A stretch of DNA of 64,000 nt from Escherichia coli (GCF_003790525.1 NZ_CP033635.1), one strand, 5' to 3'. Positions 2,253 to 56,851 are shown, numbered from the stretch's first letter. Notes: a model not told the origin generated them from the sequence alone. Program-made: numbers and translations.

Positions 2253-3878
2253 TCAGATTACGTGCGGTGTGATCAGCACAACCAGAATGGTGTCATCGTC
2301 ACCGCTGTCAGTGCCGCCACCCAGCCCGAAGAATGCCGGGCTGCCGACGCCCTGGCGCACGGATTTGCTGCCGGACTGCCGGAATCCGCTGAGAATGACG
2401 GTCTGACCTGATTTCAGGTCGATGGTCTGGTTGATGGTTTTCAGGTCTACCGTGGGCACCTGTGCCCGGCTGCCGCCGCTCTCGAACACCTCAAAGGTGG
2501 GTTTGTCGGAGAGGTTCATGCTGAAGAGCAGCTGCAGGCTGCGCGCATCCGGCTGAATGAACGGCAGCAGGGTCATGTTGAAGCCGGTGGTGATGGTGGC
2601 GGCGTTCAGGGAGGTGCTGGTCCCGACGTTGGCCGTGGTGTCGGTGGTGACACCTTCGATATAGCCCTGCTGGCTGGCCACCTGCATGGGCACCGGCGTC
2701 ATGTTTTTGGTGACGGCGGAGTTCTGTGTGACCACGCTGACGGTGCCCTGACTGGAGAGCGCCTTCAGGAAGGCCTTCGAGCCGGTGAGCTTACCGTCCA
2801 CAATGGAGACGCCACTGGTGATGATGTCATCGGCGGCACTGCTGAATGCCCCTCCCAGCGTGAGGCCGAGACGTCCGTCGCTGAAGACGGCATTCCAGTC
2901 AATGCCGGCCTGGTCACGGCGGGTTTTTCTGACGCTGAGGACTTCCACGTTCAGCACCACCTGACGTCGCATCTCGCGGTTACGTGCCTCCACAAAACGG
3001 CTGACGGTGTCGAGGACCCGAGGGGTGTCGGTGACGGTGAGAAAGCCGGTGGCAAGCACCATCCGGCCGGTCCCGGGGGTCAGCATGGCACCGACGGCAT
3101 TTTTCAGGTCCTCATAGAGGGTGGACTTCATGTCGACCGTGGTGGTCTGGGTGTTGCTGGCCTCCCCGCTGAGGGTGCCGGCGTTACTGCCGGTACTGCT
3201 GCCGGATGAGGAGGAGGCGGTGCCGCTGACCACCCGGGCGTTGTAGGTCACCTGAGAGTCCATGTAGGTGACCGGGAAGGTGCGTGTCTCCAGCCAGTAA
3301 AAGGTGATGGCGCGCCGGTCACTGTCGTAACGGTACGAGATACCGAGCCGGGAGGCGACGGTATCCAGCAGCTGCCGCAGCCCGGTGGCGCTGAGTTCCG
3401 GCAGGACGGCACCGCCGCCCGGGGGGATGACCTGTGCGCCACTGCCGACGGCGGCCAGCGGCACCATGCCGTTCGGGTCCGGTGCGGGGATTGCGCCTGT
3501 CAGCTGCTGTGTGGGGCCGGTGGTGGCCAGCGCCTGCCAGACGTCGGCGGTGATGGTCACGGGGATACCGCAGCTTCCGGTGATGCGCTGGGCTATCTGC
3601 CGCAGGCTGATATCCCGGCGGGTGTTGATGATGATGGGGCAGCCCGGCAGGCTCTGGTGTGCGGGGCTGACGCTGACAGGGGAGGGGTTGATCCACTGTC
3701 GCGTGGTCTCCGTGACCACCGGCCGGGATTTACGGAGTTCGCCCGCGTGCCGGCGCGCTTTCTCCAGTGTGGCGGTGGCGTCTTTTTCCGTGTTGCTGAT
3801 ACGTTCGGCCGTACCGCAGCCTGACAGCAGCAGGGCGACGGCAGTCAGTGGCAGGAGCATGTGTTGTCTTTTTTTCAT
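2253..3878 (-). CDS. pilN: Type IVB pilus secretin lipoprotein PilN-like
   Basis: Start at 3878 gives MKKRQHMLLPLTAVALLLSGC (lipobox LSGC) preceded by an AAGGA RBS; C-terminus ...TILVVLITPHVI is secretin-like; about 541 aa. Confidence 0.7.
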   Translation of the reverse strand: MKKRQHMLLPLTAVALLLSGCGTAERISNTEKDATATLEKARRHAGELRKSRPVVTETTRQWINPSPVSVSPAHQSLPGCPIIINTRRDISLRQIAQRITGSCGIPVTITADVWQALATTGPTQQLTGAIPAPDPNGMVPLAAVGSGAQVIPPGGGAVLPELSATGLRQLLDTVASRLGISYRYDSDRRAITFYWLETRTFPVTYMDSQVTYNARVVSGTASSSSGSSTGSNAGTLSGEASNTQTTTVDMKSTLYEDLKNAVGAMLTPGTGRMVLATGFLTVTDTPRVLDTVSRFVEARNREMRRQVVLNVEVLSVRKTRRDQAGIDWNAVFSDGRLGLTLGGAFSSAADDIITSGVSIVDGKLTGSKAFLKALSSQGTVSVVTQNSAVTKNMTPVPMQVASQQGYIEGVTTDTTANVGTSTSLNAATITTGFNMTLLPFIQPDARSLQLLFSMNLSDKPTFEVFESGGSRAQVPTVDLKTINQTIDLKSGQTVILSGFRQSGSKSVRQGVGSPAFFGLGGGTDSGDDDTILVVLITPHVI

Positions 3879-3940
3879 GCAGAAATCCTTGTGTGAAACG
3901 TGAAAACAGTGAGCAGAGCAGGGAGGGCAGAAGCGCTTCG

Positions 3941-4012
3941 GGACTGAAGTCTGCGCGTGATGGCGATATATCCGCGGGACATGACCGCGGCCGGATATGC
4001 AGACTTCAGTCC
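3941..4012. promoter_or_regulatory. Nested inverted-repeat structure in pilM-pilN intergenic region
   Basis: Perfect 14-bp inverted repeat GGACTGAAGTCTGC (3941-3954) / GCAGACTTCAGTCC (3999-4012) enclosing inner inverted repeat ATATCCG / CGGATAT and CCGCGG palindromes. Confidence 0.5.
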
Positions 4013-4067
4013 ACAGGCTCCTCACACTGTGCGGGACAGCGAAGGTTAACGGTGCAGTGATGTCCCG

Positions 4068-4505
4068 CTAGTTGAAATAAACAAATGCGCTGTCAGGAAT
4101 GACGGACGGCACGCTGATACCGGTGTCCTGACCTGTGGTGTTCAGCAGTCGCCGCCCCTTCACCCGGCCTGCCAGCGCGGTTTTGTGGGTGATGTCTGCC
4201 AGCGCACCTGCAAGCCCCGGGCGGTCATCCTGCCAGACAAAGACCCGCTGTCCGGCGATGATATGGCGGGTACCGTATACCGGGCGGAAACCCGTGGCGG
4301 TGACGGGGAGCGTGCCACCCCCCGTGCGCTCAGCCGGATGGGTGTACAGCCGGTCGTTAATGCCGTTCATGAGGCGGACCATCTCCCACGCACGTTCACG
4401 CATCTCCGCCTGCTCGCTGTACACGGTGACCCGGTGGGTACTGCTGTTGTGAAACCAGGTCAGCGCCACGGTCAGGGCCATGACCAGGGAGAGCGACCAG
4501 CCCAT
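4068..4505 (-). CDS. pilM: Type IVB pilus protein PilM-like
   Basis: Start at 4505 (MGWSLSLVMALTVALTW, N-terminal hydrophobic) lies 2 nt after the pilL stop; 145 aa, same length as R64 PilM. Confidence 0.45.
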   Translation of the reverse strand: MGWSLSLVMALTVALTWFHNSSTHRVTVYSEQAEMRERAWEMVRLMNGINDRLYTHPAERTGGGTLPVTATGFRPVYGTRHIIAGQRVFVWQDDRPGLAGALADITHKTALAGRVKGRRLLNTTGQDTGISVPSVIPDSAFVYFN

Positions 4506-52722: not shown

Positions 52723-53432
52723 AAATTGAATTAACGGTGAATGGGCTGAAGATACAGGCACAGTACCAGAACGAAGAGATTGAAAATGTACATAAACCGT
52801 TGCTGCACATGTTGGCGGCCTTACAGACGGTAAATCCGCAGCGGCGTACGGTGGTTTTTCTTTGCGCTCCGCCGGGGACGGGTAAATCTACCCTAACCAC
52901 CTTCTGGGAATATATCGCGCAACAAGACCCGGAACTGCCCGCTATTCAGACGCTACCGATGGATGGTTTTCATCATTACAATAGCTGGCTGGATGCGCAT
53001 CAATTGCGCCCCTTCAAAGGCGCACCAGAGACATTTGACGTTGCGAAACTGGCGGAAAATCTGCGCCAGGTCGTGGAAGGGGATTGTACGTGGCCGCAGT
53101 ACGATCGACAAAAGCATGATCCTGTTGAAGATGCGTTGCACGTTACCGCACCACTCGTCATCGTCGAAGGAAACTGGTTGTTGCTGGACGACGAGAAGTG
53201 GCGCCAGCTTGCGCAATTTTGTGATTTCTCGATCTTTATCAAAGCTCCCGCATCTGCGTTGCGGGAGCGTCTGGTGGGGCGCAAGCTGGCGGGAGGGTTA
53301 TCGCTGGCAGACGCAGAAGCCTTTTATGACCGTACCGACGGGCCGAATGTTCGCCGGGTGCTGGAAGAGAGTCTGCCTGCAAATTTGACCTTAATGATGA
53401 CCGCTACGGGTGAATATCGTCTGATGGATTAA
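52719..53432 (+). CDS. yggC: P-loop kinase-like protein
   Basis: 237 aa; Walker A APPGTGKST. Confidence 0.8.
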   Translation: MKIELTVNGLKIQAQYQNEEIENVHKPLLHMLAALQTVNPQRRTVVFLCAPPGTGKSTLTTFWEYIAQQDPELPAIQTLPMDGFHHYNSWLDAHQLRPFKGAPETFDVAKLAENLRQVVEGDCTWPQYDRQKHDPVEDALHVTAPLVIVEGNWLLLDDEKWRQLAQFCDFSIFIKAPASALRERLVGRKLAGGLSLADAEAFYDRTDGPNVRRVLEESLPANLTLMMTATGEYRLMD

Positions 53433-54114
53433 CGTTCCTGATTACACCATCTTCCAGTCGCACCACACGAGAGAAATGACGCCGGGTAAATGCGGCGTCA
53501 TGACTGATTGCTACGACGCTCGTGCCTCGCTGGCGGCACTTTTCCAGCCAACTTTCAAACACGCTCATCCAATTTTCGTCAAAATCCCGACTCGGCTCGT
53601 CCAGCAGCAATAGCGGCGGAGAGAGTGCTTCCAGGCAGGCGACGGCGACCATCCGTCGCTGCGCACTATGCAGATCCAGCGGATGCGCGCTGGCAGTGTC
53701 TGCTAACTGACAGCATTGCAGGGCAGCATTGGTACGTTGAGTGATTTCATCCGCCGGGCATTTTTGCAGTTTCAAACCAAATGCGATCTCGTCAGCGACG
53801 GTGCTGTGAAAAAGCTGGTTTTCCGCTTCCTGAAACAGTACGCCAATCTTTGCCGCGCGCTGGCGGTTTTTCAGGTTTTTCATCGCCTGTTGTTGCAGCA
53901 TAACCGTACCGGCTGTGGGCGTAAGAAGACCTGCCATTACTCGTAACAGCGTCGATTTTCCCGCGCCATTGTCGCCGGTCAGCGCCAACCATTCACCTTG
54001 TTTGAGTTGCAGAGAAATGTCGCAAAGACAATCCGTTGCCGCGTCAGGCCAGCGATAAGTTATCTGATTTAACGTTAACATAGTGGCTGGAGCGCTCCGT
54101 TTTGCAATTGCCAC
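53404..54114 (-). CDS. ECF/CbiO-type ABC ATPase subunit (second ATPase)
   Basis: 236 aa; Walker A GDNGAGKST; LLLLDEP Walker B; overlaps preceding ATPase gene. Confidence 0.75.
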   Translation of the reverse strand: MAIAKRSAPATMLTLNQITYRWPDAATDCLCDISLQLKQGEWLALTGDNGAGKSTLLRVMAGLLTPTAGTVMLQQQAMKNLKNRQRAAKIGVLFQEAENQLFHSTVADEIAFGLKLQKCPADEITQRTNAALQCCQLADTASAHPLDLHSAQRRMVAVACLEALSPPLLLLDEPSRDFDENWMSVFESWLEKCRQRGTSVVAISHDAAFTRRHFSRVVRLEDGVIRNVNPSDDIHP

Positions 54115-54758
54115 GCTTGCTGGCAGTAGTTCAGGAAAGGTGTACGATGACGTTCAAAAAGAATAATCAGCGAACCACGTTCAAGCGCCCAGTGTTGTAA
54201 GCGCTGCAACAGCATTTCGCAGGCCTGCGGCGTCAGGCGGCTAAAGGCTTCATCAAGAATTAAGAGCTTTGGCTGCATCGCGATGGCGCAGGCGATGACC
54301 ACACGCTGTGTCTCTCCACCGGAGAGTGTTGCCGGGTGACGATGGCGCAACGGCTGGCACTCGGTCAGAGTCAGGGCGGCATCAATCCGCGCCATAATCT
54401 CCTCTTCAGCAAGACACAGATTTTCTGGCCCAAAGGCAACTTTTTCTTCCACGCTAAAGGTACAGCCGGAGAGCTGCAAATAGGGCGATTGCTGAACGAG
54501 CTGGATGGTGGCGGATTGTTCATTAAGCGGGATATGCCCAATGGGCGTACCGAGAAGCGTCCCCGTGCCGGTTATCTCTCCTGGCAGAAAGTCCGGATAC
54601 CAGCCCGCCATCAGCTGTGCCAGCGTACTTTTGCCACTGCCGTTGTCACCAAAGATGGCGACCATCCCCGGTTTGACATAGTGAAAGTCATAACAGAACG
54701 GAGGATGCGTTGAGTGTGTCGGGCAATAGCGAAACTGTTCTAACGTAACCATATCCAC
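54075..54758 (-). CDS. ECF/CbiO-type ABC ATPase subunit (first ATPase)
   Basis: 227 aa; Walker A GDNGSGKST; signature LSGGE; LILDEA Walker B. Confidence 0.75.
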   Translation of the reverse strand: MDMVTLEQFRYCPTHSTHPPFCYDFHYVKPGMVAIFGDNGSGKSTLAQLMAGWYPDFLPGEITGTGTLLGTPIGHIPLNEQSATIQLVQQSPYLQLSGCTFSVEEKVAFGPENLCLAEEEIMARIDAALTLTECQPLRHRHPATLSGGETQRVVIACAIAMQPKLLILDEAFSRLTPQACEMLLQRLQHWALERGSLIILFERHRTPFLNYCQQAWQLQNGALQPLC

Positions 54759-55447
54759 GCTCCGAATTCAGCCAGCATTAGCAAGATCATGGCGTAACGT
54801 GCTACGCGTTGTAGGGTGCTATCGGCTGGTGCCCATAACGTAGTGCGCCTATTGTTGATTCGAAATGCCCGCATATCCAGCGCCGCACCACGGACAGCCA
54901 GATCGTTAAGCGCATTGTGTGTTAGCGGAATAATTAGCGCGGGCATCGCGCGTAAACGCTGATACCAGCCTTCATCAAGCGGCACGCCGCGGGCGCGCTG
55001 CGCTTCATGAATAATCGCTAATTGCCGTTTTAACTGCTCAACGACCAACAACGGCCCGGCGAACAGATAAGCGACGCCCGGCGGCAGGCGAGAAGCAAAC
55101 AAAGCGCGGATAAAACGTTGCACTGGGACGTACTGCATCCACAACTGCGAGGTTGAAACAATCGCCAGAATCCGCAACCAGAGCGTAATAGCATGCGTCC
55201 ACCGTTCTGGCGAGCGTGGCGTGCCGCTTAGCCATTCTATCAGCCAGCCACCGTGTACCAGCCACAGTCCAGCCCCCAGCGAGAACATCAGCCAGACGAC
55301 ATATTTTGCCCGCCGCCGCGTGGCCTTTAGCGCAATAAGGCAGAAAAAGGTCGCCGCGCTATAGACTGGCAATATTGTCTGTGTGGGCAGGATAAGCGTG
55401 GTGTAGGCCGCCAGCGCCCACAGCGTTAATGAGGTAAACGGATGCAT
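54740..55447 (-). CDS. ECF transporter transmembrane component (EcfT/CbiQ-like)
   Basis: 235 aa polytopic; ends with Arg-containing ALDMRAF segment of the kind seen in T components; lies between S-like and ATPase genes. Confidence 0.65.
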   Translation of the reverse strand: MHPFTSLTLWALAAYTTLILPTQTILPVYSAATFFCLIALKATRRRAKYVVWLMFSLGAGLWLVHGGWLIEWLSGTPRSPERWTHAITLWLRILAIVSTSQLWMQYVPVQRFIRALFASRLPPGVAYLFAGPLLVVEQLKRQLAIIHEAQRARGVPLDEGWYQRLRAMPALIIPLTHNALNDLAVRGAALDMRAFRINNRRTTLWAPADSTLQRVARYAMILLMLAEFGAWIWLR

Positions 55448-56026
55448 TTAGCGCACGGCTGCCATTGCCGGAAAATGGCGCGTGGTGCGAATCGGCAGCT
55501 GACGCAGTAAAAGCCAGACAATCACCGCTGTAAGAATTTTATCGACCAGGTTTGCGCCTATCACCGTAATCGCCACCGACTCCACCAGGTTTTGCCCCAT
55601 AGAGTGCATCCAGGCAACGAACAAATCGGCTCCGCTACCGGTGACACCGCCGAACAGCGCAGTACGCAGCGGTACAGCGACGACCGTTACCGCAAGCGTA
55701 ATAATCACGCCGCTGACAACGACTTTTGGCAGGGTGCGGAACCAACCCGCTCGCGCCAGCCAACCGGCGACCAGGCCGATGACCATCGCCACGGGCGCAA
55801 ATGCGGCGGCGATCGGGTCGGTCAGCAATCCCCAGAGTAAATTGGTCAGTAAGCCGGTCAGCATCCCGATCACCGGACCAAGCAGTACCGCGCTAATAAG
55901 TGTGCCGACGGAGTCGAGAAATATAGGTAATTTGACCATGCTGGCCAGTTGCCCGCCGATCATATTGATGGCGATAGATATAACGATCAACACCAGCGCC
56001 TGACTGGAAAAGTGGCGACGCGCCAT
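55448..56026 (-). CDS. ECF transporter substrate-capture (S) component-like membrane protein
   Basis: Start at 56026 (GAGAGG RBS) gives 192 aa, about six hydrophobic helices, Gly-rich; substrate not inferable. Confidence 0.6.
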   Translation of the reverse strand: MARRHFSSQALVLIVISIAINMIGGQLASMVKLPIFLDSVGTLISAVLLGPVIGMLTGLLTNLLWGLLTDPIAAAFAPVAMVIGLVAGWLARAGWFRTLPKVVVSGVIITLAVTVVAVPLRTALFGGVTGSGADLFVAWMHSMGQNLVESVAITVIGANLVDKILTAVIVWLLLRQLPIRTTRHFPAMAAVR

Positions 56027-56048
56027 AAGAAAACCTCTCTGAAAATAG

Positions 56049-56480
56049 TTAGTTAACGGGGGAAATATGCAACTCGTCGTAACCAGAAAGCGCGCAAGGC
56101 TGGCGGCTAAACGCCAGTTCCTCAAGGCAGCCGATCACCAGTTCAAGCGTGGTCCGCACGGTACAGCCGGGCATCATATGACCGCCAAGCATCGTGCCGT
56201 GTGGATCGGAAACGCAGAGATGAAGATGTTCACCACTCTGTTCCAGCGTGCCGTTCAATGCGATGACTTCGAACTTACCGCTTAGTAGGGCAGTGTTTTC
56301 TTGCCCGGCATAGCGTAAGGCGACGTCAGTCAGACTGCCGGTACAACCTGCAATCCACGCGGCGTGAAGTTGTTGTTGCTGCGCGAAGGCGCGTAATTGG
56401 GAGAGAACTTCCTGCCCGGGGAGCAGGCGCAGCGCGTAAAAACGTGCGGAGGAAGAATATGGGTAGGGCAATGTCATCAT
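56049..56480 (-). CDS. DUF296 / PPC-domain protein
   Basis: 143 aa, first gene of the ECF-like operon; size and motif pattern resemble PPC-domain proteins (from memory). Confidence 0.5.
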   Translation of the reverse strand: MMTLPYPYSSSARFYALRLLPGQEVLSQLRAFAQQQQLHAAWIAGCTGSLTDVALRYAGQENTALLSGKFEVIALNGTLEQSGEHLHLCVSDPHGTMLGGHMMPGCTVRTTLELVIGCLEELAFSRQPCALSGYDELHISPVN

Positions 56481-56851
56481 TGGAGTACTCCGAAACTCGG
56501 ACGTATTGCGGATAATATCGACGCTGCATCAGTCATATTCTGATATAAGTCAGGGTTTGTGACGGCACAACGAAAAGATTTTGCTACGCTTATTCGTGAT
56601 TCTGCAAAGTGGAATAAATTCCACAGGGGCGGGGCTGAAAACGTGACGTAAGTCAGATAATTGTCTTCTTTGACTGGACAATCATTCCTTTTATTCCACG
56701 TTTCGCTTATCCTAGCTGAAGCGTTTCAGTCGATTAAATGTTCGACAATTAACCAATCAGTCGCAGTTTGCGACAGGTAAGGTTTCCCCGGACGATTTGC
56801 TGGATTACTCTGTCTGGCAAATTTGCTCAGGGAAAACCTTGCAGGAGATCT

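Follow-up and report, generated by a model that had tools for sequence, protein, structure and literature searches.

The closest described counterpart of the locus analyzed here is O-island 119 (OI-119) of the enterohemorrhagic Escherichia coli (EHEC) strain O157:H7 EDL933, in which z4267 (lmiA) encodes a DUF296 protein, z4268 and z4269 are listed as hypothetical, and z4270 and z4271 encode ATP-binding cassette (ABC) ATPases (PMC7667037, Liu et al. mBio 2020). A review gives the length of the island as 3,267 bp (PMC8565820). PhoQ/PhoP induces lmiA at low Mg2+, and PhoP binds upstream of the gene (PMC7667037); LmiA activates ler and the enterocyte effacement locus (LEE), as well as gadA/gadBC, in EHEC (PMC7667037, mBio 2020; PMC11657066, Gut Microbes 2024). 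LmiA was placed at the ler and gad promoters by electrophoretic mobility shift assay (EMSA), competition, chromatin immunoprecipitation with quantitative PCR (ChIP-qPCR) and DNase footprinting, and plasmid complementation restored the phenotypes (PMC7667037, PMC11657066). A further system of reference is queK-qrtT-queL of Clostridioides difficile, in which preQ1, queuine and queuosine are taken up through a PF12822 S component (PMC11130926, PMC11477304). Here we describe five minus-strand genes located between yggC and epd in a 64,000-nt stretch of E. coli DNA (hereafter the window). This locus is the known OI-119 of EHEC O157:H7 (z4267-z4271), annotated in RefSeq as an energy-coupling factor (ECF) transporter, and our finding of it is a re-discovery of a published island. 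The explanation that best accounts for our results, and in which we place somewhat more confidence than doubt, is that the OI-119 operon lmiA-ecfS-ecfT-ecfA1-ecfA2 is ancestral, was lost in K-12-type strains, and encodes an importer, probably for a nucleoside-like substrate. What the present analysis adds is the pairing of PCC (DUF296) proteins with ECF transporters across phyla, the enzyme-like fold of the PCC protein, and the ancestral origin of the island; the novelty is modest and the additions are directly testable.

An earlier note, made from the sequence alone, had described a tightly packed, five-gene ECF module led by a DUF296 gene and missing from K-12. The five minus-strand ORFs within 53404-56480 are borne out by the ORF listing and by the RefSeq annotation of E. 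coli strain CM2, a chicken isolate that is 100% identical over the window region, in which they are labeled as a PPC domain-containing DNA-binding protein, an ECF transporter S component, a transmembrane component T, and two ABC ATP-binding proteins. The first operon gene, lmiA (z4267 orthologue; 56049..56480), does encode a PCC/DUF296 protein, of 143 aa and a single domain (PF03479, E = 2.7e-27). Downstream of it, on the same minus strand, lie genes for an ECF S component (z4268 orthologue; 55448..56026; 192 aa, about six transmembrane helices; PF12822, E = 2.3e-8), an EcfT/CbiQ-type T component (z4269 orthologue; 54740..55447; 235 aa; PF02361 CbiQ, E = 1.5e-4), and two ABC ATPases of 225 aa each, A1 (z4270 orthologue; 54075..54752; TIGR04520 ECF_ATPase_1, E = 1.7e-34) and A2 (z4271 orthologue; 53404..54081; TIGR04521 ECF_ATPase_2, E = 8e-44). 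The genes are as closely packed as the note had it: lmiA and the S gene are 22 bp apart, the S and T genes abut, 13 nt are shared by T and A1 and 7 nt by A1 and A2, and A2 and the convergent yggC overlap at their stops by 29 bp. Such packing would entail co-transcription and translational coupling of the five genes, so that the transporter genes should be induced together with lmiA. In K-12 MG1655 the module is missing, epd (b2927) and yggC (b2928) being adjacent with nothing between them.

BLAST of a K-12-type locus (L002) against the window delimits a segment, 53364..56630, that is swapped for an unrelated 132 bp in K-12-type genomes; its 3,267 bp equal the published size of OI-119. An O157:H7 genome encodes, at the corresponding chromosomal site, proteins with 93-98% identity to these, the value for LmiA being 93%. 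Divergence from O157:H7 is uneven within the operon, with dS of 0.35 for lmiA and 0.27 for the T gene and of 0.06-0.07 for S, A1 and A2, and the LmiA of the window is 97.9% identical to that of E. albertii. Such allelic mosaicism, seen on comparing 56049-56480 and 54740-55447 with L003 and L011, points to recombination inside the operon or to a polymorphism of long standing there. The 4-kb region of the window is matched at 99% identity or more in 17 of 5,426 genomes.

With high confidence, the last four genes are predicted from their sequences to form a dedicated (group I) ECF importer. The AF2 model of the S component (pLDDT 88.6) has the six-helix ECF-S fold, and its top 18 PDB matches in Foldseek are all ECF S components (RibU, FolT, ThiT, PanT, BioY), with TM scores of 0.5-0.67 and probabilities of 0.85-1.0; a search of PDB sequences with the S sequence returned no matches. 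A hidden Markov model (HMM) search, which the earlier note had proposed as a check on the membrane protein, matched it to PF12822 and, below the curated cut-off, to NF045596, both ECF S-component families. In the T component, R153 and G154 of the coupling motif QRARG are conserved in 100% of 77 homologues, and R186 of the second motif, AVRG, in 95% of them. A1 combines the Walker A motif GDNGSGKS with the signature LSGGE and the Walker B motif LLILDE, and has no clear H-loop; A2 has GDNGAGKS, the degenerate signature LHSAQ, LLLLDE, and the H-loop SHD. Given the LSGGE of A1 and the LHSAQ of A2, one consensus and one degenerate ATP site are predicted. The ECF assignment made in the note, as well as the two Walker A motifs it listed, thus hold: the S model matches ECF S structures only, the Ala-Arg-Gly of EcfT is invariant, and two ABC ATPases are present. 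The order S-T-A-A, with its own T and A genes, is the same in at least 70 related loci, as in a dedicated operon. Neither ATPase reaches the equivalog cut-off of its ECF-ATPase model (E 1e-34 to 1e-44), and the alignments extend over only ~220 of 270-280 model positions. Their length is ~225 aa in Enterobacteriaceae and ~280 aa in Proteus, Providencia and more distant loci; at ~225 aa, the usual EcfA C-terminal extension is missing.

Related S domains also occur in other architectures. Among P0220, P0243, P0153, P0170, P0172 and P0176 are proteins of 569-935 aa in which the S domain is fused to a histidine kinase, apparently as a membrane sensor module, and S-T fusions of 460-490 aa. In P0137, two S domains stand in tandem, and the protein exceeds the cut-off of the CD3073 family.

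The earlier note had called the DUF296 partner unusual for a vitamin-uptake ECF system, a view that our survey overturns. The S family comprises 752 representative clusters at E < 1e-10, and a scan of one genome per species yielded 80 loci, over which the pattern was established by local HMM iteration. Where S is at least 50% identical to that of the window (46 loci), PCC lies directly upstream in 43 and in the flank in all 46. These loci belong to Gamma-, Beta- and Alphaproteobacteria (Enterobacterales, Aeromonas, Wohlfahrtiimonas, Laribacter, Brucella, Mesorhizobium, Kaistia, Paracoccus) and, beyond Proteobacteria, to Desulfobacterota, Synergistaceae and Chloroflexi. In the 34 loci with S less than 50% identical, PCC is directly upstream in 1 and in the flank in 13; two of them (L061, L071) have the operon order PCC-hydrolase-S-T-A-A. 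A DUF296/PCC partner is therefore the rule for this S-component family across phyla and not an oddity of one locus.

Several observations were made on individual relatives. In Citrobacter sp. R56 (L054 6428-7579), the PCC and S genes are in one reading frame (...ISPVNPSPGKRFFMAHRQFSS...), a fusion that would tether PCC to the cytoplasmic N-terminus of S; this is a single case that could be a sequencing error, and no PCC-S fusion was found among 270 database proteins. In Proteus (L028 4488-6167; L024 3038-4717), the PCC-ECF cluster has the catabolic acetolactate synthase gene alsS just upstream. Acetolactate decarboxylase has a fold akin to that of PCC, yet this adjacency is probably a coincidence; it is specific to the genus, and P. 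penneri has an unrelated gene between alsS and the cluster. More generally, the neighbors that recur around clusters of the E. coli type in Proteus, Providencia, Hafnia, Morganella and Budvicia reflect lineage-specific synteny (purC, mtfA, alsS, tktA), with a TsuA/YeeE-like gene as the exception.

S relatives are found in salvage clusters for nucleosides and modified bases, which makes a nucleoside or a (modified) nucleobase the most likely substrate class; we rate the chance that the importer carries such a compound, rather than cobalt or a classical vitamin, at a little short of even. A nucleoside hydrolase of the RihA/RihC type, often duplicated, stands beside S relatives of less than 50% identity in 21-24 loci (24 of the 34 in the locus count, 11 of them with PCC as well). 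Ribokinase genes are found near S relatives in 8-11 loci, and genes for the queuosine-precursor transporter YhhQ/QPTR in 7. In one Bacillota locus (L067), the cluster has genes for a LacI/CytR-type regulator and uridine phosphorylase at its flanks, and L080 carries members of these local BLAST clusters at the same positions; a metagenomic locus (L093) carries a GntR regulator, a nucleoside hydrolase and a 5'-nucleotidase. Tgt is directly upstream of S in two Ardenticatenaceae loci (L060, L064). Genes related to sulfur and selenium recur too. A Desulfosporosinus locus has a CD3072-family, TudS-related desulfidase directly upstream of S (L084, 6439-7017) together with a cysteine desulfurase/SclA-like gene; L009 carries a putative 2-thiouracil desulfurase (3633-4196); genes for YedF-like proteins (YedF C-terminal-domain proteins) occur in 8 loci, all of which have PCC (L039, L041, L049, L050, L056, L058, L082, L088), and genes for TsuA/YeeE-like membrane proteins in 3 (L031, L042, L084). 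This recurrence hints at thiolated or selenated substrates. The genes upregulated in the ΔlmiA mutant are enriched for nucleotide transport and metabolism (PMC11657066), which lends weak support to the same lead.

Judged from gene order and sequence comparison, the position beside epd is the ancestral one of the cluster in Enterobacteriaceae, and the replacement seen in K-12 would be derived. Among complete E. coli genomes, the site is filled in 3,318 of 5,426 (61%) and shows the empty, K-12-type junction in 2,094. Atlantibacter hermannii has the same five genes between epd and yggC, and the cluster adjoins epd in E. albertii, Citrobacter, Kluyvera, Pseudescherichia, Superficieibacter and Phytobacter; Buttiauxella carries all five as a unit in a different genomic context, with the PCC-ECF pairing kept. 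The Salmonella orthologue of LmiA, 80% identical, is the protein of PDB entries 2HX0/2NMU. In comparisons with partners from O157:H7 out to Atlantibacter, the dN/dS of the five genes lies within 0.03-0.32, similar to that of epd and yggC; all five are under purifying selection and functional. The GC content of the island, 54.6%, is only slightly higher than that of its flanks (~51%). Further information comes from yggC, whose first 150 codons are nearly identical between island-bearing and K-12-type haplotypes and whose last third (~75 codons; 53190-53432 in the window, 3190-3496 in L002) differs strongly. Compared with Atlantibacter, the C-terminus of the island-bearing form is 79% identical and that of the K-12 type 61%, the N-terminal two thirds being equidistant. 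Since the island-bearing end is the closer to the outgroups, it would be the K-12 type that carries a foreign or derived 3' end together with the 132-bp spacer. We considered this spacer as a remnant of the island and rejected the idea: its short matches are at chance level, suggesting that the K-12 state is not a simple internal deletion scar. An ancestral cluster contradicts the horizontal acquisition of lmiA stated in PMC7667037.

The regulatory region published for lmiA is present in the window. The transcription start site (TSS) lies 90 nt upstream of the ATG (PMC7667037), which defines a 90-nt leader on the minus strand (56481..56570). The promoter, with its -10 element TAGCAAAAT at 56578-56586 and its -35 element TTGCAG at 56602-56607, matches the published one exactly (PMC7667037), as does the PhoP DNase-I footprint CTTACGTCACGTTTTCAGC at 56634..56652, all on the minus strand. 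The footprint is just outside the 3,267-bp island-specific segment, and K-12 keeps this DNA (56631-56665) in a diverged form, GTGTGATGTGAGTCAGA. On the plus strand, both versions of the block resemble a CRP site (TGTGA-N6-TCACA), and a Cra-like operator, CGACTGAAACGCTTCAGCTAG, is found at 56712-56732. Given its conservation across Enterobacteriaceae genera, the footprint block may also, or instead, serve the divergent epd promoter.

Within the leader, two minus-strand blocks are conserved across Enterobacteriaceae genera: a palindrome just downstream of the TSS (CCTGACTTATATCAGA / CCTGAYTTATATCAG, of which 14 bp are CTGAYTTATATCAG; 56539-56554) and, next to the ribosome-binding site, a short hairpin with a 5-bp stem and GGAG in its 3' arm (ACGTCCGAGTTTCGGAGT; 56487-56504). 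By phylogenetic footprinting, both are kept in Escherichia, Citrobacter, Kluyvera, Atlantibacter, Superficieibacter, Phytobacter and Enterobacter, and were not found in Buttiauxella, Proteus, Providencia, Hafnia or Aeromonas. These blocks may be protein operators or sites of translational control. A riboswitch or structured leader, for which the earlier note had proposed a scan upstream of lmiA, was rejected: Rfam cmscan at E up to 5 gave no match in the leader, the 99 nt from 56472 to 56570 (leader plus the first nine coding bases) fold no better than shuffled sequences (z = 0.24), and RNAalifold on 11 Enterobacteriaceae leaders returned only two hairpins of 4-5 bp with little covariation. 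A sub-threshold match to the Rfam DUF3577 motif inside the A2 coding sequence (53475-53578, minus strand; 21.5 bits against a gathering threshold of 42.6, E = 0.98) is almost certainly due to chance. Autoregulation through the published 17-bp LmiA motif was likewise rejected, no match with three or fewer mismatches being present anywhere in the window.

LmiA belongs to the PCC/DUF296 family (PF03479) by its domain, its fold and its His triad (His3). The three histidines, H85, H87 and H101, are invariant in 60 ECF-linked PCC homologues, as are R18, P21, G48-S49-L50, R56, E71, T110, T111, E113, R126 and E136. The protein is acidic (pI 5.6; median of the 60 homologues 5.4, none above 8), and no AT-hook (RGRP) was found in LmiA or in these 60 proteins. 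Its fold is enzyme-like and resembles zinc-dependent acetolactate decarboxylases (4BT2, 1XV2, 6INB). The "DNA-binding" label of PCC proteins stems from the AHL proteins of plants, in which the AT-hook, and not the PPC domain, contacts DNA; we know of no catalytic activity for any PCC protein. The enzyme-like signature sits uneasily with the label of DNA-binding protein, and the published EMSA, ChIP and footprint data still stand. We infer that LmiA would be an ancient, obligatory cytoplasmic partner of the transporter family with a His3 metal or ligand site, and that its regulation of virulence genes in EHEC would represent a lineage-specific use of this transporter partner. LmiA could also be primarily a zinc-dependent enzyme or ligand-handling accessory for the imported compound, with sequence-specific DNA binding being secondary, moonlighting or indirect. 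This is possible and, on balance, doubtful. The invariant H85, H87 and H101, along with R18, R56, E71, T110, T111, E113, R126 and E136, the acidity, the missing AT-hook and the plant origin of the label all speak for it, as do the location of the gene in one operon with the transporter, in some loci with a nucleoside hydrolase too, and the in-frame fusion of PCC to S in one Citrobacter genome; the lack of any enzymatic activity known to us in PCC proteins speaks against it. PCC-less loci, moreover, sometimes carry a classical LacI or GntR regulator, which fits PCC being itself a regulator, and the binding of LmiA to ler and gad is documented by EMSA, competition, ChIP-qPCR and footprints, with working complementation (PMC7667037, PMC11657066). 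We advance no more than tentatively the broader proposal that His3 PCC proteins are obligatory partners, as enzyme or ligand receiver, of ECF importers whose substrates are (modified) nucleosides or nucleobases and may be thiolated or selenated, that the regulator role of LmiA is secondary or indirect, and that K-12 lost a salvage system.

The remaining alternatives concern mainly what is transported. That LmiA is a dedicated ligand-responsive transcription factor and that the importer carries a vitamin-like micronutrient unrelated to nucleosides would agree with the reported DNA binding of LmiA, with its first or adjacent position, typical of a cognate regulator, with the tendency of PCC not to co-occur with LacI/GntR, and with the best structural matches of S, RibU, FolT and ThiT; most characterized S components of the PF12822 type carry vitamins. 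We nevertheless regard it as unlikely. No vitamin-specific S model matches (the FolT family scores 17.8 bits against a cut-off of 60), no vitamin riboswitch was found, and vitamin-pathway genes were not recognized among the annotated recurrent or sampled neighbors, most flanking ORFs being unannotated, whereas nucleoside and modified-base genes do recur there; in addition, the window lacks the 17-bp motif published for LmiA, and the PCC fold is enzyme-like. Salvage of a queuosine precursor (preQ1, queuine or queuosine) by a transporter of the QrtT type is a more specific proposal, given that QrtT is of the PF12822 type and that its gene clusters in C. difficile with the one for the nucleoside hydrolase QueK, and that relatives of S lie beside YhhQ/QPTR (7 loci) and Tgt (L060, L064). 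These Tgt and YhhQ neighbors are confined to relatives ~40-45% identical, however, and many relatives are accompanied by ribokinase, uridine phosphorylase and LacI/CytR-type regulators, which are typical of general nucleoside catabolism. The Rfam scan found no preQ1 riboswitch, queL and queK were not found near E. coli-type clusters (46 loci), and E. coli has its own de novo synthesis of queuosine and already takes up preQ0 and preQ1 through YhhQ (PMC5372724). We therefore hold this proposal to be improbable. Highly improbable, finally, is a cobalt (or nickel) ECF transporter, as in the legacy annotation "cbiQ-cbiO2," with STM3071/LmiA as a metal-responsive regulator, even though the T and ATPase genes match CbiQ and CbiO models, LmiA has a His3 metal site and the operon is under the divalent-cation-sensing PhoPQ. 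Metal ECF transporters need a CbiM/NikM S component (PF01891) and CbiN/NikN; here S is of the PF12822 type without a PF01891 match, and the operon has no CbiN-like ORF or extra small membrane ORF. The CbiQ/CbiO matches are generic to ECF modules and far below equivalog cut-offs, and neither cobalamin nor urease/hydrogenase genes were recognized among the annotated neighbors of relatives. We rejected this candidate on account of its S component, which belongs to the wrong family (PF12822 and NF045596 only). With S unlike CbiM/NikM and CbiN absent, the cobalt label is carried over from CbiQ/CbiO homology of a generic kind.

The explanation that we prefer, that of an ancestral OI-119 operon encoding an importer probably for a nucleoside-like substrate, has to be set against a number of observations. 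Deletion of z4268-z4271 had no adherence or LEE phenotype (PMC7667037); our literature search found no published transport data for these genes, and the literature on CD3073, STM3071-3073 and z4268-z4270 yielded no functional data on the transporter. The best NCBIfam model for S, NF045596 (CD3073 family putative ECF S component), scores 135.6 bits for a curated cut-off of 180, so that S is related to this equivalog and falls outside the family cut-off. Compared with canonical EcfA, the E. coli ATPases lack ~50 residues, one of the two ATP sites is degenerate, and the grouping of lmiA with the transporter genes in one transcript is based on spacing. No nucleoside hydrolase is adjacent to S in the E. 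coli clade (S at least 50% identical; 0 of 46 loci, and hence none with both hydrolase and PCC), which means that the substrate inference rests on relatives ~40% identical and on the common PCC partner. The contexts of the family as a whole are mixed, comprising nucleoside catabolism, queuosine, and sulfur/selenium genes.

According to the preferred explanation, PhoQ/PhoP would induce lmiA at low Mg2+, and the transporter genes along with it. The six-helix S component would capture a small substrate and topple against the EcfT scaffold, the toppling being driven by an ATPase heterodimer with one canonical and one degenerate ATP site, and LmiA would act as the cytoplasmic partner of the importer by means of its His3 metal or ligand site. 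K-12-type strains would have lost the cluster via a replacement event.

As the island is published, the novelty of the locus itself is low. LmiA matters for EHEC colonization; if it is the ligand- or metal-binding partner of a nutrient importer, a virulence circuit responding to low Mg2+ would be tied to the uptake of a specific gut metabolite, and the PCC/DUF296 family would get its first biochemical context. The evidence for an ancestral island amends the published account, in which EHEC obtained lmiA by horizontal transfer. E. coli moreover serves as an "ECF-free" host because K-12 is devoid of these genes, yet 61% of complete genomes, as well as Salmonella and Citrobacter, carry one such transporter.

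The locus agrees with OI-119 of EDL933 in its five genes and their order, in site and in length, and its PhoP footprint and promoter are identical; the window represents another E. coli lineage, in which the lmiA allele has diverged (dS 0.35 with respect to O157:H7). It is in interpretation that we differ from the OI-119 papers: horizontally acquired there, the island appears ancestral here, and z4268 and z4269, hypothetical there, are here predicted to encode ECF S and T components. With the group I transporters BioMNY and CbiMNQO, the locus has in common an S component, a T component and two ATPases in one operon, the S fold, the Ala-Arg-Gly of EcfT, and ECF-type ATPases. In contrast with these systems, S is neither BioY nor CbiM/NikM, PCC is an extra conserved member of the operon, and the ATPases, at ~225 aa, have ~50 fewer C-terminal residues than canonical EcfA and, in A2, a degenerate signature. 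LmiA has structural counterparts in the PCC/DUF296 proteins solved by structural genomics, from Salmonella (PDB 2HX0/2NMU), V. cholerae (VCA0587, 2P6Y) and PH0802 (2DT4); zinc alpha-acetolactate decarboxylases (ALDC), unlike LmiA, have two domains and no association with transporters. QueK-QrtT-QueL of C. difficile and the NCBIfam pair CD3072 (TudS-related desulfidase)/CD3073 (putative ECF S component) differ from the E. coli locus, which lacks a riboswitch as well as any neighboring hydrolase, lyase or desulfidase, and whose S component is below the NF045596 cut-off; S in E. coli also has T and ATPase genes of its own instead of a shared core module, and its partner is PCC. What relates them is that, in both systems, an S component of the PF12822 type is genetically coupled to enzymes acting on modified nucleosides or bases; for the CD3072/CD3073 pair in particular, the E. 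coli S component has NF045596 (CD3073) as its best model, and in L084 a CD3072-type gene is directly upstream of a relative.

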